Source of the DNA: Eledone cirrhosa
Lineage: Eukaryota
DNA length: 64,000 nt
Direction of reading: 5' to 3'
NCBI GenBank assembly: GCA_964016885.1
Contig: OZ024742.1
Coordinates: 201,004,001 to 201,068,000 of the forward strand
The position numbers and the translations under genes are program-made. A model generated the notes under the pieces. That model was not told the DNA's origin and did not search any database. It saw only the letters and a list, made by a program, of their open reading frames with translations. The stretch's first letter is position 1; each line of letters starts with the position of its first letter. Shown one piece after another: positions 2,637-57,205 of this stretch.

Positions 2637-4223
2637 GGTGGACCAGTATTTTTTTCCCCCTGGTGTACATTATTCGATTTTTTCAGTAAAATCGGTTCTC
2701 TTAATAGAACATCAAAAATCTTAACAATAAAAGGTGTGAAATGATATTCACTATATATATATACACATACACATATTCACTACATATATATATATATATA
2801 TACATATATACATACATATATATGCACATATATTTTTTTGTATTGCACCATAGAGCATGTGTGTTTACGTGTGTCATTGTGTTTATATGTGGGTAGAGAT
2901 GTGTGCTGATGTAGGTATGTATGTTGACGTGTGTATGTTGTGGGTTCGTCTTAGGGAGAAGTGTTTAGACGGGGTCCGTATTTGTTAATGAAGTAAGATT
3001 CCTTGCTGATGCGCTGGGTGTGGGTGGCATTATCTTTAAATTTGTAGAGGGGAATGATTCTGAAGTTGGGATGATTTTGGGCGGCACAGGTATCAATGTG
3101 TTCACTCAGTGGTATTTTCCTGTATTCCCGTATTTTAATTTGGGATCTATGGACAGTCATGCGTTGGCGGAGGCTGTTTTTGGTCTGGCCTATGTATTGT
3201 TCTCGACAACCTGAACAAGTTAATACATATATTAGATTTTCTGATGCACATGTGAAATTGTGTTTTACTATAAAACGTTGTCCATCTTTGAAATAGAATT
3301 CCGAACCCTCTATTAGGTTGATGCAAATGCCACAGTTGGGTCTATCGCATTTTTTTACTGTTGGTTTCGTTGTTATGGTTGGCAGTACTTTGGCATGTGT
3401 TAGGATGTTTTTCATTGACTTGGATTGTCTTTTGCTCTTTATGATATCGTGTGTTCGTAGAATTTGGTTCATTCTATGGTCCTTTTTCAATACAGGGATG
3501 TTCTGGAGGATGGTGTCAAAGGCCTCATTGTTGAGGGGGTTGTGTGTGGAGATGTATGGAAGAGCTTTTAGTTTTGGTTGATTTACTTTAGGGTGTCTAA
3601 GGTCCTGGGTACTGAGTTTTAGGGCACGTTGGATTCCATTGTCAATTAGTGATGCAGGGTAGTCCCTGCCTATGAGTGTGTCCTTTAGTTCTTGTAGCCG
3701 TAAGTAGCAGATGTTTTTATTGGAGACTATAGTACAGATTCTCTTGGCTAAGTTGTAGGGAATATTAATTTTAACGTGTCTAGGGTGGCAAGAGTTGAAG
3801 GGGAGGTATTGCTTGGAGTCTGTGGGCTTGTAGTATATGTCTGTTTCTATTTTTTTGTTATGGATCTTAATGAGGATGTCGAGGAAGGGGAGTCATTTCT
3901 CAATCTTGGCGCAAAACCAATTTTTTATCCACATGACCTCTACCGACCAATCAAAATTGTTTTGACCAATAATTTTTGCTGGAGCCACTTTTTTAACATA
4001 AAAACAGGTAGAATTCCCAAAACTAATCAGATCAGAGCAAACAGCACGGACACTCTATCTCAAAATTATTTTTGAAAAGCATTTAGAAATGCGCAACCGG
4101 TAAAAACTTAAAAACTTAAAACCACAACTGAATACTAACCCATACAATCACTAATACTCTTTTATTCCTAATTAAACCATTTTTCAACTGTGAACAATTT
4201 GTCAGCATTTTCTATTCCGTTTA

Positions 4224-12451: not shown

Positions 12452-15400
12452 ATGTTCTTCTGGTTTTATAATACACAAAGTTTTGCCAATAGAGAGAGAG
12501 TCGGTTTCTAACATAGACACAAGACGCTCTCATTGGAATTTACACATCAACTAGGTAGATATGTATGGATGCATGCATGCATGTGTAGTATGGATGTTAT
12601 TGTATGTGTGAATGTGTATGTTTTGAGTTGTATGTGTGCATGTGTATATGCTTTGTATCTGTACATGTGTATATGCAGTTATCAGATGCAACATTTTTGG
12701 AATGTTTTACATATTTTTACTGTTCAATTAATGGATTTTACTTGTATTTTCCTAACTAGTTGTGTTCTTTCTGTTCCTGTGAAGCCTAGCTTCTCAAGAT
12801 TTGTATTGAGGCAGTTACTAACATATCCCAGTGCCCCAATAATCACAGGCATAAATCTGAAGGTGTAATCAGGGTGGAGTATCTGCAGATTTCTCATCAG
12901 TTCTGCATAAATATTCTCCTTTTCACTAATCTTTGATATTATATTGGCATCTGCTGGGCAGCTAATTTCCACTACTGTGCATGTTTTATTCTCCCTATCC
13001 CATATCATAATATCTGGTCTGTTATGCCTGCATTTTATTGGGGTTTTTACTGGAACATTCCACCAGTACTCTTTCATATTATGTATATGGATGTCTTCCA
13101 CATTGTTGTAGCTTTTAATGTGTTTATTATCGGGGCTATCTTTTTTACGAACTGCATTGTAGAGTGTTTTGGCCACTACATCATGCCTCATAGGTAGATA
13201 GTACCGGGATGACATCTTTGGACAGCTGCTGATGACATGGGTGATATCCTCGATGTTAGTTCTGCAGAGTCTGCACTTGTTATCACATCTAGGTGTTTTG
13301 CCTGCATCCCTATCTCTTTTGTGAATCAGGTATTTTGTGCTAATCTCCTGTTCCTGCATTGCAAAAGCGTATCCTTCAAAGTGGGAGCCAATATAGCAGT
13401 TGTTGGTCCAAGATAGACTACTTTCTTTATCTATATTACTCTCAGCTTCCTGGCAGCATATTCATGCATGAATTTTTGCTGATAGACATGCAGTTTTTCA
13501 TCCATGGATTCACTGCGATACTGTTAAGCGACATCCCTGGGTGTGAGTTTTTGATTATCACAAAGGGAATATCTCTCAAGTAGTTGCTTCCCAACTCTCA
13601 TGATCTTATTTGTTTCATGCAGATAGACTTGTTCGAGAAACGGGCTCCTACGCTTCGAGGTTCGTAGATGTTTTCGGAGAGATATGATGCGACATTCAAA
13701 TGTTGTCTGGACTGATGTTAGGCCTCTGCCTCCCTGTTTACGTTTCAAGTAAAGGCGGTCTATATCACTGTTGATGTGGAAGTTTCCGGTGTTGTTCAGT
13801 ATTTTTCGAGTTCCAACATCAACTGCTCAGATTTCGTCTATCGTCCAATTGAGTATTCCAAACGTTGGTGTTAGGACAGGCACAGCAAACACATTGTGAG
13901 CCACTGTTTTGTTTTGCGCAGAGTTCCTATGACCAGATCTTTCTTAATCAGGTGTAGTATTCCCTGGTTACGCGTTCTTTATTACAGATACCATTATAGG
14001 ATATGTTCTCATCTATTCCCAGGTATCTGTAGCAGTACTCATCAGATATCGGTGAAACAGTTAGACCATTGATGACAATGTTGCTAGATTGGGTTGTTGT
14101 TTTTCCCCGCTTTACAGTCATGTATGAGCATTTATCTTGGTCAATCTCCATTCCTATATCCTTTGAGAACGTTGTAACCAGGTCAAGATTTTTTTTCATC
14201 CCATCCATGTTCTTGACATAGAGTTTCAGATCGTCCACAAAGAAATTATGGGTTAGGTTCGTATTTCTGTCCTCCTGTGAGCCAATGATGTATCCCTCAC
14301 ATTTCTTGAGCAGAAAGGACAAGGGGTTTAATGACAATATGAGCAATATCACAGAGAGACTGTCCCCCGAAATATACCCCTGCAATATTTTATTTTATCA
14401 GTGAAAATAGAGTCTTCCCTCTCTGTCTTTAACCTTAGGATAGTAGCCAAAGAAGAAGACAGCCTCTTTATGGCTCTGACAATAATGTCTGGGACTTTAG
14501 GAAGTTGGAGGGCCTCTATCATTCAAGAGTGGAGAACAGAATCGAAATCTTTCCTGTAGTCCAGCCAGACTGTAGCCATATTCCTCCTAAGCTGTCGCAC
14601 CTCCGACATCGCAGTTTTATTGATTAGGAGTTGTTCAGCACATCCCCAAACCTCTTTCTTTCCAGCTTCTTGTTCATCTGTGATGATGTCATTATTTTCA
14701 CAGTGATCTTGGAGGAATAGGTTCATGCAGGCTGTATACATCTTATACTACAGGTTCTGGCATGCAATGGGGCGGTAGTGTTTTGCCAAGTGGGTGTCTT
14801 TGTTGTTGGGGACCAGTAACGTTTCTGCTAATGTCAACAATTCTAGTATAAGTGTATCTCCCTTAAGAACTTGTTGGTAGAGGTCAGTAAGATACCTCCG
14901 ATAGAATATTAGTTTTGTGTACCAGTAGCCGACAATTATGTCTCTTCCTAGTGCTTTCTTATCTTGGAGTTTTCCTATCACAGTCTCAAGTGTACCCTCA
15001 CTTATTTCGTATGTTTTTGTTGTAGTGTAGGAGCAATAGTTCTTTCGGATTTCTCTTCGCCACACTGCATCTTGGTTGAAATTCTTCTTTTCACCCCATA
15101 TTTTTCTCCAAAAGGAATCTATGTCTTTCTTATTTTGCCCTTCATATCTCTATAGACTGATGTTTGGTTTCGTCTGAATCTTTTATTAAGCACTTTATGA
15201 CTTGTTCTTCTTTTTGGTAAATATCATATTGGTTAAGAGTGTGGGACTGGCTTTGTGCAGTGCCTTTGCTCACTATAAAAGCTTCACGGCACAGGCATTG
15301 CTTTATATCTGTAGATCTCTCTGCACTTGTCGTCACATGGTACCATGAGCCCAGCACTATGTGTCAATAATTGTCACAAGTGTAGTGTGTTTACCAGAGT

Positions 15401-29339: not shown

Positions 29340-30832
<1,493 letters not shown>

Positions 30833-30839
30833 ATATATA

Positions 30840-30871
<32 letters not shown>

Positions 30872-30891
30872 AACATGAGAAGAAAGAAAAA

Positions 30892-31630
30892 TACTGCGTG
30901 ATTTGCACATGGGTTACATATGATAAAAATAGTCCTTCGTCAGTGATTTTCCAACCATCATTAGTATTTCATCGCATTAAAAATCAGATACCTCAGGTTG
31001 GTGCGAGCAATAACTAAAAAAAGTTATTGAGACCAGAATTCGCGTAAGGCGAGGGGGACAAGTAAACAACATAGAAGGATAAAAGCAAACCGAAGATAGG
31101 AAAATAAACAAGCAACATGGTTGTCCGGTCAGCATAAGCTGGGTGGATTTCATGACCGAGAGAGGTACAGACCGTGTTGATGTGTGTGAGATGTGAGCAA
31201 GAAGAGATCCACACAAGCCAAACGGGAGGAAGTGAGAAGGGGAGAAACAGAGAGTGAGTGAGTGGAAGTGTGAGGAAGAGGTCAGTCGAGAGAAAGTGTA
31301 ACTGACAGAGGTGGAGAAAGAAGGTGAGAGAAACAGAGAGCAGGGAAGCAGTAAGAGAGAAACAGACAAACGCAGCCGAGGTAAATATAAATAAAAAACA
31401 TGAGAAGAAAGAAGAATACTGCGTGGTTTGCACATGGGTTACATATGATAAAAATAGTCCTTCGTCAGTGATTTTCCAACCATCATTGGTATTTCATCGC
31501 TTTAAAAATCAGATACCTCAGGTTGGTGCGAGCAATAACTAAAAAAAGTTATTGGGACCAGAATTCGCGTAAGGCGAGGGGGACAAGTAAACAACATAGA
31601 AGGATAAAAGCAAACCGAAGATAGGAAATT
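30892..31630 (-). repeat. Partial tandem duplication (~505-bp period) of a repeat family also at 44179-44420
   Basis: ~30892-31110 is repeated at ~31398-31630. Confidence 0.75.
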
Positions 31631-33780: not shown

Positions 33781-33849
33781 TATATGTATGCATATATATA
33801 TATATATATATAATATAAGATCAAAAGATGGTTAAAGGAGTTCAATATA

Positions 33850-33916
33850 TTTTATTATGCGCATTTCAAAAACAAACATCATCAAACAATAATATTTGTG
33901 TTTTCATCAGATAAAA
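33850..33916 (-). ncRNA. Minimal type I HHR (mirror of 35742-35808)
   Basis: Reverse complement of the + strand copy. Confidence 0.8.
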
Positions 33917-35155
33917 CAGGAGAACATGATATGAAGGCTAAAAAAACACTTGTTGATAGTGCAGTTTTAAATCAACATATGAAAAGTGGTTTTAGATTGA
34001 TGTGTGATATTGGGAAAAATATTTTATTTAGAGAGGGGGGGAGAGAAAAGGATGAAAAGGGAAGGAGATGAGAGGGAGAGATGGGTGATAGAGAGAAAGA
34101 GATAGTTTTTATAACTGAGAGGAGATATATTTTATATAGAGGGGTTGAAAACCGTTGGAAGATACTGTATAAATTAAACATTTTGAAAATTAACGAAGGG
34201 AGGATATGTGCGAGGAAAAAATATATTATATTTAGGGAGGGGTGGGGGTGGAAAGGATGAAAAAAAGGGGAGGAGATGAGAGTGAAGGTGGAAAGGGAGA
34301 GATGGGTGATAGAGAGAAAGAGATAGTTTTTATAACTGAGAAAAAGATATAATGTTTTAATATAGAGAGGTTGGGAACCGTTGGAAGATAATGTATAAAT
34401 TAAAGGAATTTGAAAATTAACGAAGGGAAATTATGTATGGAGATAGAGAGAAAAAAATAACGAAGGGAAATTATGTATGGAGATAGAGAGAAAAAATAAT
34501 AATTGTGGGTGAATATTCTAACGTCAAAAGGAGAAATGTAGGAATTTTAAAATTAGCAAAGAGAAAAAGTTTATGTGTAGAAGGATTTGAGAAAAATAAT
34601 GTGAAGTTAAAGTTTTTATATTGAATTCATATGTATTAATAATGAGTTCGTTGATGGGGAGAAAAAAATAATAATAAATTAAGGATGAAATTGAGATTAA
34701 AAAGATTTATGATAGAGAGAAAAAATAATAATGATTGCGGATGAATACTCAAAATGTCAAAAACAAATGTTATTGTTTTACGAGGAGATATAATGAGGGT
34801 GATGAGTAAACGGGTATTATAGAGTGTATAATGCCCTTTAAAGTAAGGTAGATGGGTATATTTTAAAGAATATATGAGTATATATTAAAAAAAATATATA
34901 ATAATAAATTAAGGATGAAATTGAGATTAAAAAGATTTATGATAGAGGGAAAAAAATAATAATGATTGCGGATGAATATTCAAAATGTCAAAAACAAATG
35001 TTATTGTTTTACGAGAAGATAGGATGAGGGAAATGAGTAAACGAGTATTATAGAGTGTATAATGCCCTTTAAAGTAAGGTAGATGGGTATATTTTAAAGA
35101 GGTGTATGTATATGTGCCTTTGAGAAAAGATTCTAAATTGATAAAGAATTGAATA

Positions 35156-35524
35156 TTAACTGTATACTTTGTGAAAAGTTCTATGGAATTTATGCAGGCA
35201 GATGGAAAACAAATCCGAGCGTCTATTTATTATGGATTCTAGGTTAGAGATAATGGTAAATTTTTCATTTAGGCAGAGATTACAGATTTTAGATAGAGAG
35301 CTGTTCAAGTACGAGGATGCAGAAGAAATCTTTTTCCAAAAGATGTTATATTTAATGTTTTTGTCTTTTAAGGACCATATGAGTTCTGAGAGAGCAGTGT
35401 TAGTTCTTTTAAGTTTGTATTTGAAAGATGAATGATGATTATAGAGACGAGCTTTAAAAGAGGTGGAAGTGGAGCCAAAATAGGTGAAGGAATTGGTGCT
35501 AGTTATAATTTTACATTCATAAAT
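35156..35524 (-). pseudogene. Naiad-type GIY-YIG endonuclease domain (not in ORF track)
   Basis: Manual translation: IYECKIITSTNSFTYFGSTSTSFKARLYNHHSSFK...TALSELIWSLKDKNIKYNIFWKKI...ICNLCLNEKFTII...IINRRSDLFSICLHK...*; 122 open codons. Confidence 0.85.
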
Positions 35525-35741
35525 AAAATATATCTCCTCTCAGTTATAAAAACTATCTCTTTCTCTCTATCACCCATCTCTCCCTCTCATCTCCTTCCCT
35601 TTTCATCCTTTTCTCTCCCCCCCTCTCTAAATAAAATATTTTTCCCAATATCACACATCAATCTAAAACCACTTTTCATATATTGATTTAAAACTGCACT
35701 ATCAACAAGTGTTTTTTTAGCCTTCATATCATGTTCTCCTG

Positions 35742-35808
35742 TTTTATCTGATGAAAACACAAATATTATTGTTTGATGATGTTTGTTTTTGAAATGCGCA
35801 TAATAAAA
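35742..35808 (+). ncRNA. Minimal type I HHR
   Basis: ttttat CTGATGA aaacacaaatatta..tgatgtttgttttt GAAA tgcgca TA ataaaa; palindrome ATGCGCAT; AUA triplet. Confidence 0.8.
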
Positions 35809-35931
35809 TATATTGAACTCCTTTAACCATCTTTTGATCTTATATTATGCATACTCCAGTCCCACAAACTGTAGAGTGCTTCTTATCCGATATCTGCATT
35901 GCTTTATTGTACTACAATAAAACTCACCTCC

Positions 35932-36003
<72 letters not shown>

Positions 36004-51025: not shown

Positions 51026-51094
<69 letters not shown>

Positions 51095-51214
51095 TATAGA
51101 CATAGAATATTCGAAAATATTCTGTATGTTTATAATAAACATTTTGAAGACCTAATCGCTATAGAATAGAATACGTCACGTATTACAATTAGATTCTCGA
51201 TAAAAGCAAGGGAA

Positions 51215-51257
51215 GTAATCTACGCGTTTCATTCTTGTTAGAATTCATCAGGACTAC
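51215..51257 (-). ncRNA. Minimal type I HHR (first of 9 minus-strand copies, every 310 bp)
   Basis: Reverse complement of gtagtc CTGATGA attc-taacaa-gaat GAAA cgcg TA gattac. Confidence 0.9.
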
Positions 51258-54063
51258 ATATCCAGTGCTTTTATCGAGAATGACACAGCTAGAGACTTAT
51301 AGAATACTTAGCTGTGTACAGGAACTGGTTTGAAAGAGCGGTTGCCGGTCCGGCAGAAATTAGAAATTGGAATAAATGCTCTGAAATAGCGATATATATG
51401 TGAATATAGACATAGAATATTCGAAAATATTCTGTATGTTTATAATAAACATTTTGAAGACCTAATCGCTATAGAATAGAATACGTCACGTATTACAATT
51501 AGATTCTCGATAAAAGCAAGGGAAGTAATCTACGCGTTTCATTCTTGTTAGAATTCATCAGGACTACATATCCAGTGCTTTTATCGAGAATGACACAGCT
51601 AGAGACTTATAGAATACTTAGCTGTGTACAGGAACTGGTTTGAAAGAGCGGTTGCCGGTCCGGCAGAAATTAGAAATTGGAATAAATGCTCTGAAATAGC
51701 GATATATATGTGAATATAGACATAGAATATTCGAAAATATTCTGTATGTTTATAATAAACATTTTGAAGACCTAATCGCTATAGAATAGAATACGTCACG
51801 TATTACAATTAGATTCTCGATAAAAGCAAGGGAAGTAATCTACGCGTTTCATTCTTGTTAGAATTCATCAGGACTACATATCCAGTGCTTTTATCGAGAA
51901 TGACACAGCTAGAGACTTATAGAATACTTAGCTGTGTACAGGAACTGGTTTGAAAGAGCGGTTGCCGGTCCGGCAGAAATTAGAAATTGGAATAAATGCT
52001 CTGAAATAGCGATATATATGTGAATATAGACATAGAATATTCGAAAATATTCTGTATGTTTATAATAGACATTTTGAAGACCTAATCGCTATAGAATAGA
52101 ATACGTCACGTATTACAATTAGATTCTCGATAAAAGCAAGGGAAGTAATCTACGCGTTTCATTCTTGTTAGAATTCATCAGGACTACATATCCAGTGCTT
52201 TTATCGAGAATGACACAGCTAGAGACTTATAGAATACTTAGCTGTGTACAGGAACTGGTTTGAAAGAGCGGTTGCCGGTCCGGCAGAAATTAGAAATTGG
52301 AATAAATGCTCTGAAATAGCGATATATATGTGAATATAGACATAGAATATTCGAAAATATTCTGTATGTTTATAATAAACATTTTGAAGACCTAATCGCT
52401 ATAGAATAGAATACGTCACGTATTACAATTAGATTCTCGATAAAAGCAAGGGAAGTAATCTACGCGTTTCATTCTTGTTAGAATTCATCAGGACTACATA
52501 TCCAGTGCTTTTATCGAGAATGACACAGCTAGAGACTTATAGAATACTTAGCTGTGTACAGGAACTGGTTTGAAAGAGCGGTTGCCGGTCCGGCAGAAAT
52601 TAGAAATTGGAATAAATGCTCTGAAATAGCGATATATATGTGAATATAGACATAGAATATTCGAAAATATTCTGTATGTTTATAATAAACATTTTGAAGA
52701 CCTAATCGCTATAGAATAGAATACGTCACGTATTACAATTAGATTCTCGATAAAAGCAAGGGAAGTAATCTACGCGTTTCATTCTTGTTAGAATTCATCA
52801 GGACTACATATCCAGTGCTTTTATCGAGAATGACACAGCTAGAGACTTATAGAATACTTAGCTGTGTACAGGAACTGGTTTGAAAGAGCGGTTGCCGGTC
52901 CGGCAGAAATTAGAAATTGGAATAAATGCTCTGAAATAGCGATATATATGTGAATATAGACATAGAATATTCGAAAATATTCTGTATGTTTATAATAAAC
53001 ATTTTGAAGACCTAATCGCTATAGAATAGAATACGTCACGTATTACAATTAGATTCTCGATAAAAGCAAGGGAAGTAATCTACGCGTTTCATTCTTGTTA
53101 GAATTCATCAGGACTACATATCCAGTGCTTTTATCGAGAATGACACAGCTAGAGACTTATAGAATACTTAGCTGTGTACAGGAACTGGTTTGAAAGAGCG
53201 GTTGCCGGTCCGGCAGAAATTAGAAATTGGAATAAATGCTCTGAAATAGCGATATATATGTGAATATAGACATAGAATATTCGAAAATATTCTGTATGTT
53301 TATAATAAACATTTTGAAGACCTAATCGCTATAGAATAGAATACGTCACGTATTACAATTAGATTCTCGATAAAAGCAAGGGAAGTAATCTACGCGTTTC
53401 ATTCTTGTTAGAATTCATCAGGACTACATATCCAGTGCTTTTATCGAGAATGACACAGCTAGAGACTTATAGAATACTTAGCTGTGTACAGGAACTGGTT
53501 TGAAAGAGCGGTTGCCGGTCCGGCAGAAATTAGAAATTGGAATAAATGCTCTGAAATAGCGATATATATGTGAATATAGACATAGAATATTCGAAAATAT
53601 TCTGTATGTTTATAATAAACATTTTGAAGACCTAATCGCTATAGAATAGAATACGTCACGTATTACAATTAGATTCTCGATAAAAGCAAGGGAAGTAATC
53701 TACGCGTTTCATTCTTGTTAGAATTCATCAGGACTACATATCCAGTGCTTTTATCGAGAATGACACAGCTAGAGACTTATAGAATACTTAGCTGTGTACA
53801 GGAACTGGTTTGAAAGAGCGGTTGCCGGTCCGGCAGAAATTAGAAATTGGAATAAATGCTCTGAAATAGCGATATATATGTGAATATAGACATAGAATAT
53901 TCGAAAATATTCTGTATGTTTATAATAAATGCTATTTCAGAGCATTTATTCCAATTTCTAATTTCTGCCGGACCGGCAACCGCTCTTTCAAACCAGTTCC
54001 TGTACACAGCTAAGTATTCTATAAGTCTCTAGCTGTGTCATTCTCGATAAAAGCACTGGATAT

Positions 54064-54106
54064 GTAGTCCTGATGAATTCTAACAAGAATGAAACGCGTA
54101 GATTAC
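54064..54106 (+). ncRNA. Minimal type I HHR (first of 6 plus-strand copies, every 310 bp)
   Basis: Stem I gtagtc/gattac; core CTGATGA (54070-54076); stem II attc/gaat; GAAA (54091-54094); palindrome ACGCGT; predicted cleavage after GUA at 54100. Confidence 0.92.
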
Positions 54107-55816
54107 TTCCCTTGCTTTTATCGAGAATCTAATTGTAATACGTGACGTATTCTATTCTATAGCGATTAGGTCTTCAAAATGTTTATTATAAACATACAGA
54201 ATATTTTCGAATATTCTATGTCTATATTCACATATATATCGCTATTTCAGAGCATTTATTCCAATTTCTAATTTCTGCCGGACCGGCAACCGCTCTTTCA
54301 AACCAGTTCCTGTACACAGCTAAGTATTCTATAAGTCTCTAGCTGTGTCATTCTCGATAAAAGCACTGGATATGTAGTCCTGATGAATTCTAACAAGAAT
54401 GAAACGCGTAGATTACTTCCCTTGCTTTTATCGAGAATCTAATTGTAATACGTGACGTATTCTATTCTATAGCGATTAGGTCTTCAAAATGTTTATTATA
54501 AACATACAGAATATTTTCGAATATTCTATGTCTATATTCACATATATATCGCTATTTCAGAGCATTTATTCCAATTTCTAATTTCTGCCGGACCGGCAAC
54601 CGCTCTTTCAAACCAGTTCCTGTACACAGCTAAGTATTCTATAAGTCTCTAGCTGTGTCATTCTCGATAAAAGCACTGGATATGTAGTCCTGATGAATTC
54701 TAACAAGAATGAAACGCGTAGATTACTTCCCTTGCTTTTATCGAGAATCTAATTGTAATACGTGACGTATTCTATTCTATAGCGATTAGGTCTTCAAAAT
54801 GTTTATTATAAACATACAGAATATTTTCGAATATTCTATGTCTATATTCACATATATATCGCTATTTCAGAGCATTTATTCCAATTTCTAATTTCTGCCG
54901 GACCGGCAACCGCTCTTTCAAACCAGTTCCTGTACACAGCTAAGTATTCTATAAGTCTCTAGCTGTGTCATTCTCGATAAAAGCACTGGATATGTAGTCC
55001 TGATGAATTCTAACAAGAATGAAACGCGTAGATTACTTCCCTTGCTTTTATCGAGAATCTAATTGTAATACGTGACGTATTCTATTCTATAGCGATTAGG
55101 TCTTCAAAATGTTTATTATAAACATACAGAATATTTTCGAATATTCTATGTCTATATTCACATATATATCGCTATTTCAGAGCATTTATTCCAATTTCTA
55201 ATTTCTGCCGGACCGGCAACCGCTCTTTCAAACCAGTTCCTGTACACAGCTAAGTATTCTATAAGTCTCTAGCTGTGTCATTCTCGATAAAAGCACTGGA
55301 TATGTAGTCCTGATGAATTCTAACAAGAATGAAACGCGTAGATTACTTCCCTTGCTTTTATCGAGAATCTAATTGTAATACGTGACGTATTCTATTCTAT
55401 AGCGATTAGGTCTTCAAAATGTTTATTATAAACATACAGAATATTTTCGAATATTCTATGTCTATATTCACATATATATCGCTATTTCAGAGCATTTATT
55501 CCAATTTCTAATTTCTGCCGGACCGGCAACCGCTCTTTCAAACCAGTTCCTGTACACAGCTAAGTATTCTATAAGTCTCTAGCTGTGTCATTCTCGATAA
55601 AAGCACTGGATATGTAGTCCTGATGAATTCTAACAAGAATGAAACGCGTAGATTACTTCCCTTGCTTTTATCGAGAATCTAATTGTAATACGTGACGTAT
55701 TCTATTCTATAGCGATTAGGTCTTCAAAATGTTTATTATAAACATACAGAATATTTTCGAATATTCTATGTCTATATTCACATATATATCGCTATTTCAG
55801 AGCATTTATTCCAATA

Positions 55817-56054
<238 letters not shown>

Positions 56055-56540
56055 CATAATATATAATATATTCGGATACATATATATATATTCATACATA
56101 TATTTAGAAATATATACACACATGTTCATACACACACACAAACACAAACCCACACACACACAAACACATATAAAGAAGATATATATATTATATAATAGTG
56201 GACACAGCAAGGCCGAATGGTGAAGTAATACGCCTCGCAAACATTAGGTCCCGGTTTCGATCTCATTGCTTGGCATCTTGAGTAACTCTCATTTACTAGA
56301 AAGAAAACTGATTAGAAAACCCTGGAATGGAATGTGCATGTATTCAATTGGTCAGCCTTTTTCATACTGATTCGTCCTGAGATTTCCTTTTAAGGTTCCT
56401 GTGTCTGTGAAATGCTCGGCCACATATAAGGTAATTTCACAGGCAGGCTCTTTCGTTGAGCGAAAAATGAGATTCATTATGTATAGGAATATATGTGCGT
56501 GTCATATTATTAAGGGTGTATTATTATGTATGTATATCGA

Positions 56541-57205
56541 GGGCGGTGGGTTGGCAGTATCGGTAGAGGGTCGGATGCCATGCTTTCCAGCATAGTTACG
56601 TCCCTTTCCGATCTGAGTTCAAATCCCGCCGAGGTTGACTTTGCCTTTCATCCTTACGGGGTCGATAAAATAAAGTACCAGTAATGCACTGGGTAATTGC
56701 TGGTCTTGTGCCAAAAGTAGAAACAATTATGTATGTATATCGAGGGCGGTGGGTTGGCAGTATCGGTAGAGGGTCGGATGCCATTCTTTGACGCATAGAG
56801 TTACGGCCCTTTCCACTCTGAGTTCAAATCCCGCCGAGGTTAACTTTGCCTTTCATCCTTACGGGGTCTATAAAATAAAGTAAAATAAAGTACCAGTAAT
56901 GCACTGGGTAATTGCTGGCCTTCAGCCAAAAATAGAAACAATTATTATGTATGTATATATTGGCCTAAATCACAAACCATTATCATGTATATCAGGGCAA
57001 TGGATTGGTAATATCGGTAGAACGACGCACAACACGCTTTGCGGCATAGTTACGCAGCTTTTTGCTCTGAGTTCAAATCCCACCGAAGTTTGCATTGCCT
57101 TTCATCATTACGGGATTGATAAAGTGCCAGTAATACACTGAGGTCGATTTAATTAGCTATCCCCTTTCCTTCAAATTGCTGGCCCTGTGTCAAAACTAGA
57201 AACAA
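56541..57205 (+). mobile_element. Three tandem tRNA-type SINE copies
   Basis: Heads at ~56541, ~56744 and ~56995, with the repeated spacer attatgtatgtatat. Confidence 0.85.

Follow-up and report, generated by a model that had tools for sequence, protein, structure and literature searches.

We analysed a 64,000-nucleotide stretch of the Eledone cirrhosa genome (the window; assembly GCA_964016885.1, contig OZ024742.1, forward-strand positions 201,004,001 to 201,068,000), in which positions 51091-55815 are filled with copies of a 310-bp unit carrying a hammerhead ribozyme. The initial annotation, made from the sequence alone, had read this region as one tandem array of 15 full units. Tandem Repeats Finder on the window instead resolved two 310-bp-period arrays in opposite orientation, two multimer arms joined 5'-to-5' with both 3' ends running into (TA)n. 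The period itself, the 15 hammerhead cores (nine on the minus strand and six on the plus strand, all intact) and the single substitution of the whole array, at 52068 in the left arm, were as first described. The change of orientation at 53930, which had been overlooked, is the feature of the locus that tells most about it; also missed were two fixed start sites and more than 1,000 similar young loci elsewhere in the genome.

The base after the predicted cut (54101) was taken as position 1 of the 310-nt unit. On this numbering both arms begin and end mid-unit, with outer ends at 130 and 165 and inner ends at 82 and 141. The features of the locus are as follows.

51026..51090, no strand: (AT)n target microsatellite, left side; its final bases are able to pair with RNA AUAUAUAU (unit 132-139), adjoining start site 1
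51091..53929, minus strand (ribozyme-sense): left arm, 9.16 units; 3' end at 130 (site 1), 5' end at 82; nine hammerheads
51215..51257, minus strand: type I hammerhead, outermost minus-strand copy, recurring every 310 nt up to 53737
53930, no strand: head-to-head (5'-to-5') junction, one additional T
53931..55815, plus strand (ribozyme-sense): right arm, 6.08 units; 5' end at 141, 3' end at 165 (site 2); six hammerheads, zero substitutions
54040-54055 with 54113-54128, plus strand: predicted extended stem I, a perfect 16-bp helix that would keep both ends of a monomer together after cleavage
54064..54106, plus strand: type I hammerhead, first plus-strand copy, recurring every 310 nt up to 55614
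55709..55815, plus strand (unit 59-165, in every unit): putative reverse-transcriptase recruitment element, comprising two hairpins with a closing stem, site 1 (55780), a 35-nt tail (55781-55815) and site 2 (55815)
55816..56006, no strand: (AT)n target microsatellite, right side, with a 2-nt match (AT) to the element end

The ribozyme unit and its family

Each hammerhead has stem I (GUAGUC/GAUUAC), the core CUGAUGA and GAAA, stem II (AUUCU/AGAAU) and a stem III reduced to the palindrome ACGCGU, the type I core and palindrome named in the initial annotation. The predicted cut lies between GUA and GAUUAC, after 54100 in the first plus-strand copy. The unit folded with z = -4.43, its minimum-energy structure contained stems I and II, and cofolding predicted a dimeric stem III in which the ACGCGU of two copies pair with each other. 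The Rfam hammerhead families (clan CL00010) gave no match at gathering threshold; in E-value mode Hammerhead_HH9 reached 23 bits (E 0.0038) versus a gathering score of 52. Cleavage by hammerheads with a palindromic stem III takes place in dimers, and in monomer circles these ribozymes are believed to remain uncut (PMC4209133, PMC7229834); a circle of one unit would be stable because it is unable to form stem III alone. The unit is non-coding, as had been claimed, with 34% GC and no ATG open reading frame (ORF) over 30 aa (the longest is exactly 30 aa), and no tRNA was found in it.

A count over the genome gave 2,528 copies of the exact 43-nt ribozyme and 0 of its reversed control, so its occurrence is not chance. 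An invariant 27-mer gave 16,449 exact matches, which correspond to ~16,400 units, about 5 Mb or 0.17% of the 3.0-Gb assembly. Ends where the unit meets (TA)n numbered 1,285 at position 130 and 1,041 at exactly 165 across the whole genome, from which we infer ~1,300-1,600 loci. Unit-private substitutions amounted to 124 in 216,642 bp, which makes the family nearly unmutated. It is a dispersed, mobile and young multi-copy family and, on the features examined (hammerhead units of 150-450 bp, non-coding, GC below 50%, dispersed), a non-LTR (non-long terminal repeat) retrozyme, a class described previously (PMC7229834, 10.64898/2026.07.22.740005, PMC7761336). The ribozyme pattern gave 0 matches in metagenome contigs and 0 in viral contigs.

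Near-identical sequence (0.73-1.00 of words) was present in 20 sequencing runs with 18 organism labels from 17 studies, no RNA run being among those listed. Three of these runs, when assembled, each gave one contig wrapping at 310 nt at a depth of 10-34. Compared with the window haplotype, a minority one in the genome, these contigs showed 0, 0 and 2 differences. Related hosts, cross-contamination or a mobile RNA may each account for the matches. We discarded the wrapping contigs as evidence for a circle, since tandem DNA predicts the wrap equally.

Paired start sites across 88 loci

The layout was scored at 88 loci. Besides the window these were nine found via the exact ribozyme, 19 via the 165 end, another 39 chosen for having paired ends (among them the twentieth 165-end locus, fetched again) and 20 with an unpaired 130 end. 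Two-armed head-to-head insertions made up 77 of the 88; one locus was four-armed, ten were scored single-armed and none was tail-to-tail. Within every arm the units run head-to-tail. Two arms were equally the rule in the subsets not picked for pairing, at 8/9 ribozyme-found loci and 19/20 165-end loci, the remaining one of which stops at an N gap. Among the 20 unpaired 130 ends, 12 had a second arm ending at 167-172, one had a second arm of 11 nt and seven were single.

Two fixed positions of the RNA, 35 nt apart, serve as arm starts: site 1 at 130 and site 2 at 165 (variants up to 172). Pairing was counted from the listed coordinates only (100 site-1 and 78 site-2 ends, first 211 Mb of C1, the contig that holds most of the loci studied). 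All 56 outward-facing pairs within 20 kb combined one site-1 end with one site-2 end, with no site 1/site 1 or site 2/site 2 pair, and 44 site-1 and 22 site-2 ends were left unpaired. Apart from the N-gap locus, single arms came only from site 1, and site 1 therefore probably primes first. Two single arms of 0.9 unit, L032 and L217, run from site 1 to the vicinity of site 2 (ending at 167 and at about 155-163), as if the enzyme had met a second priming complex. At L215 (1399-1670), 272 nt lie between the arms without a match to the unit by segmentation.

A TA run of at least 8 nt flanked 73/77 site-1 sides and 76/77 site-2 sides. This bias is partly built in, as 79 loci were found with TA-containing end patterns, but TA flanks were also seen at 8/9 loci found by ribozyme alone. 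The (TA)n masks any target-site duplication at nearly all loci, while L034, with a non-TA target, has a duplication of 10-12 bp. No terminal repeat was apparent at the loci viewed; a primer-binding site and polypurine tract were not searched for. A telomerase-like extension of TA at site 1 was considered and rejected, the TA runs being alike on both sides (median 28 vs 21 nt, p = 0.15).

These regularities bear on three explanations in which the second arm does not come from a second priming event. Near-perfect palindromic repeats assemble poorly, and an assembly or fold-back read artefact was considered. Its probability is negligible: 77 loci have unique flanks, junctions and haplotypes, the junctions are not mirror images, and older families share the layout with arms that are only ~78% alike (L233). 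In a second explanation, the initial insert is a short copy, later amplified and inverted at the DNA level by unequal exchange, extrachromosomal DNA circles or break repair. Repeating variant patterns in some long arms speak for such events. However, amplification leaves unexplained the two different fixed outer ends, each used once (56/56), the strict polarity (0/88 tail-to-tail) and arms as short as 0.24 unit, and we hold it very improbable as the origin of the layout. The third has a single priming event, the inverted arm being made when the polymerase turns back on its own cDNA or switches to it as template. This predicts the same minus-then-plus order and one shared haplotype. On that account the end of the second arm should mirror the first start or be random, yet it lies at a fixed site 35 nt from it; moreover, the inner ends are mostly not mirror images, and at locus L155 the haplotypes of the two outer ends agree but that of one arm's inner part is different. 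We judge fold-back extremely improbable.

One haplotype per insertion

Haplotypes were compared at 57 loci in which both arms were at least 300 bp. Both arms carried the same haplotype in 55 of the 57, versus 0.107 for independent draws. In total 23 haplotypes were found, 15 of them seen once and fixed across the units of their locus. The two exceptions were L144, with one extra variant in the short arm, and L155 (G000:C1:136719200-136726200), where both arms start on one haplotype and the right arm changes after two laps. L155 thus shows an apparent template switch, which suggests that a second template was available. A private change that is fixed in all units of both arms requires a one-unit bottleneck, which a circle gives and an uncleaved multimer does not.

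Median arm lengths were 988 and 1,360 bp, and the laps per arm had a median of 3-4 and sometimes exceeded 10. The cleavage site was read through: 3/154 inner ends fell within 5 nt of it, where 5.0 were expected. At the 77 junctions, 49 had no insert and 28 had one, and the insert-free junctions showed a mean microhomology of 2.3 nt vs 0.75 nt in simulation.

The main rival keeps priming at two sites by a protein of the Penelope-like element (PLE) type and takes as template a linear transcript of a parent arm, multimeric and not cleaved, so that no circle is involved. In vitro a PLE protein favours unprocessed RNA and starts internally (PMC11167929), read-through of the cleavage site is explained equally well, and the variant 13C occurs once in each arm of L053. 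Against it, 15/57 loci have a once-seen haplotype fixed throughout, which needs the one-unit bottleneck. The unit-private variant 116T recurs on three different haplotypes, which suggests a hotspot rather than inheritance. No clean read-through into the inverted arm of a parent was seen, and the lone four-armed locus (1/88) repeats its own junction. We regard the uncleaved transcript as an unlikely template.

A cleaved linear monomer, its ends held by stem I so that the reverse transcriptase jumps the nick on each lap, would account for the bottleneck, and the predicted stem I and 16-bp helix would juxtapose its ends. Three loci have a haplotype with one extra base beside the cut site, but the extra base is fixed across units, arm ends are not enriched at the cut site (the 3/154 above), and the unit-private variants listed include no lap-to-lap indels there. 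A nicked template is therefore rather improbable.

Locus-fixed variants, read on the ribozyme strand, comprised 8 A-to-G and 3 T-to-C changes, and unit-private variants 6 and 15 (Fisher p = 0.027, one post-hoc test with polarity set by the window copy). The positions entered for this A-to-G/T-to-C comparison are unit 2, 20, 158, 216, 218, 259, 276 and 295. The A-to-G excess may reflect RNA editing fixed by reverse transcription.

Penelope-like anatomy and the proposed mechanism

PLEs are recognised by a tail of 30-40 bp at one end, a 5'-truncated copy in inverted orientation and a bias of insertion towards (TA)n (PMC8557442). In work with purified PLE protein, both strands of the target were cut and extended, and synthesis began at two neighbouring internal sites, one at either border of the tail (PMC11167929). 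The retrozyme has two adjacent 3' start sites with 35-nt spacing, an inverted 5'-truncated copy and the (TA)n bias; the unit lacks the reverse transcriptase and GIY-YIG ORF of an autonomous PLE. We consider PLE-type retroposition very probable, two-site priming on one RNA likely, and a monomeric circle as the template reasonably likely. Taken together, the best explanation, with a probability of roughly 0.65, is that of a young non-autonomous non-LTR retrozyme inserted by a PLE protein through two-ended rolling-circle reverse transcription on one circular RNA. The family-wide evidence thus favours what had been proposed from the window alone, a very recent single insertion of a non-LTR retrozyme made by rolling-circle copying with PLE machinery acting in trans.

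By analogy with known retrozymes, dimeric hammerheads would cut multimeric arm transcripts every 310 nt, and the monomers would be ligated to circles. The (TA)n target would then be cut on both strands by a PLE endonuclease. One DNA end would prime at ~130 and the other at ~165-172, presumably of the same RNA molecule. Each reverse transcriptase would lap the template several times, giving the arms observed, and the two cDNA ends would be joined by microhomology-type end joining to leave the head-to-head insertion. More tentatively, a dimeric PLE protein could hold one ribozyme-made circle and prime each break end at its own fixed site, both enzymes lapping the circle by strand displacement.

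Twin priming, which produces the 5' inversions of L1, likewise uses both target ends as primers on one RNA and leaves a head-to-head junction at which microhomology is short. The L1 cDNAs span neighbouring parts of a linear RNA, each copied once, and the site of second priming is variable; in the retrozyme neither site varies, and each arm consists of repeated copies of one and the same unit.

A helper was sought among the PLEs of this genome, in which the retrozyme co-occurs with young PLEs. A young autonomous PLE gave 131 scored matches at 98-100% identity. Its 821-aa ORF had HTH_animal, GIY-YIG and RVT_1 clusters as top atlas matches and no relevant Pfam match. It carries its own palindromic hammerhead and showed the two-ended layout in 2/2 loci with both ends in view. 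A truncated copy lies in the window:

33805-35936: truncated young-PLE insertion, head-to-head, one end per site, (TA)n on both sides, a hammerhead with the palindrome ATGCGCAT in each arm

By eye, open-frame fragments at window positions 2954-3892, 12727-15149 and 29707-30939 (all minus strand) resemble PLE and LINE (long interspersed element) reverse-transcriptase regions. No homology of the unit to a PLE pseudo-LTR was found in two sampled families (30 and 20 loci; for the second family, no similarity among the matches listed) or in a third family seen only as fragments. No PLE ORF was attached within 1.5-1.7 kb at the 30 of 37 ACGCGT hammerheads, 30 of 128 R2 matches and five R3 loci covered (R2 and R3 being two older retrozyme families), and none lay beyond 20 site-2 ends or 20 unpaired site-1 ends.

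R2 (L181-L210, ~70-85% alike) and R3 (L231-L235, ~80-93% alike) keep the hairpins, the tail and the head-to-head layout, while their ribozymes differ. Both carry the octamer ATGCAAAT, a candidate internal promoter that is absent from the 310-bp unit; newt satellite 2 has an octamer promoter as well. In a 12-sequence alignment the hairpin element showed two-sided change in 5/19 predicted pairs; the first hairpin was fixed by the search pattern, so its conservation is uninformative. Further hammerhead families with a palindromic stem III were seen in the genome (L119, L120, L122 and L134; L057 and L064; L139). Ends of other PLE families lie in the (TA)n tracts of the retrozyme (right flanks of L035 and L036, left flank of L167), which makes these tracts repeated targets. 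Immediately to the right of the window array, 56523-56952 holds a SINE-like (short interspersed element-like) repeat in two tandem copies (203 bp, 88% alike).

Several results weigh against the two-ended rolling-circle reading. All loci except the window lie on contig C1. The inner ends are not uniform over the unit (Kolmogorov-Smirnov p = 0.007, by which uniformity was rejected). In the haplotype set, 44 loci carry 287T, which opposes U to U at the base of stem II; HHR_Amex2 has a U-U at this place too (PMC7229834). Only one of nine predicted Xenopus retrozyme dimers cleaved in vitro (10.64898/2026.07.22.740005), and ribozyme activity therefore cannot be assumed. With a PLE protein in vitro, uncleaved RNA was the dominant substrate and no reads ended at the ribozyme site (PMC11167929). 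The ends lie ~85 nt apart in both PLE families with readable ends; as the young PLE also resembles the unit in nothing but AT repeats and 10-13-nt words, it is an improbable helper, and no autonomous PLE with the tail of the unit or with unit similarity was found among the PLE loci examined. Variant blocks are repeated in some long arms, and DNA-level duplication thus also lengthens arrays; it acts later on some long arms, without explaining the ends. The pattern has a period of ~27 units among the 45 units of L178-L179 and of 7 units among the 19 units of L053, suggesting later satellite-like expansion or assembly error.

Metazoan non-LTR retrozymes of coral, mussel and axolotl (PMC7229834) and newt satellite 2 are likewise non-coding, low-GC repeats of 150-450 bp with a type I hammerhead, and the stem III found here, one base pair and a palindromic tetraloop, is that of axolotl HHR_Amex1 (PMC7229834). 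PLE-driven rolling-circle copying of retrozymes was already proposed in that work, which describes them as tandem repeats and in whose main text the word 'inverted' is absent. Unlike that description, insertions of the present family mostly have two arms in head-to-head order, which start from two fixed sites and carry a single haplotype at each locus. The Xenopus retrozymes belong to the same class, have the same proposed helper and are treated as non-autonomous PLE derivatives; their PLE link is co-occurrence and pseudo-LTR homology (10.64898/2026.07.22.740005), whereas the link here is insertion anatomy, and pseudo-LTR homology was not found in the PLE families sampled. Endonuclease-bearing PLEs (Poseidon PAc, Neptune, Naiad; PMC11167929, PMC8557442) share two adjacent internal start sites bounding a 30-40-nt tail, the one-ended tail itself, an inverted 5'-truncated copy, (TA)n or AT-rich targets and a hammerhead upstream of the start sites. 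The retrozyme differs from them in having no ORF and a 310-nt unit short enough to record many laps per arm, and its strict one-of-each use of the sites is not reported for PLEs in the available text of PMC11167929 and PMC8557442. We found no report of head-to-head retrozyme insertions or of this family in the literature covered, which excludes most subscription journals, Dfam and Repbase; the class is known, and the head-to-head two-site layout in retrozymes is apparently new.

How PLEs make tandem and inverted insertions is called undefined in PMC8557442, and the mechanism of retrozyme movement is left open in 10.64898/2026.07.22.740005. A 310-nt template at more than 1,000 nearly unmutated loci makes both questions countable, through paired start sites, laps and the haplotype of each insertion, and the family offers a defined RNA substrate with exact predictions for an in vitro PLE assay. 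Transcription reading through from either flank would give ribozyme-sense multimers, and more than 1,000 near-perfect palindromes with kilobase arms could form long double-stranded RNA in this genome. If the double-ended reading is true, the PLE tail, the inverted 5' copy and the tandem pseudo-LTRs would all follow from a single rule. The hairpin-plus-tail would act as a portable signal by which any small circle can be copied into (TA)n DNA, and some of the haplotypes would have arisen as A-to-I edits of the circle that reverse transcription returned to the genome. In that case the family would provide direct genomic evidence for ribozyme-made circles as templates of retrotransposition in animals.

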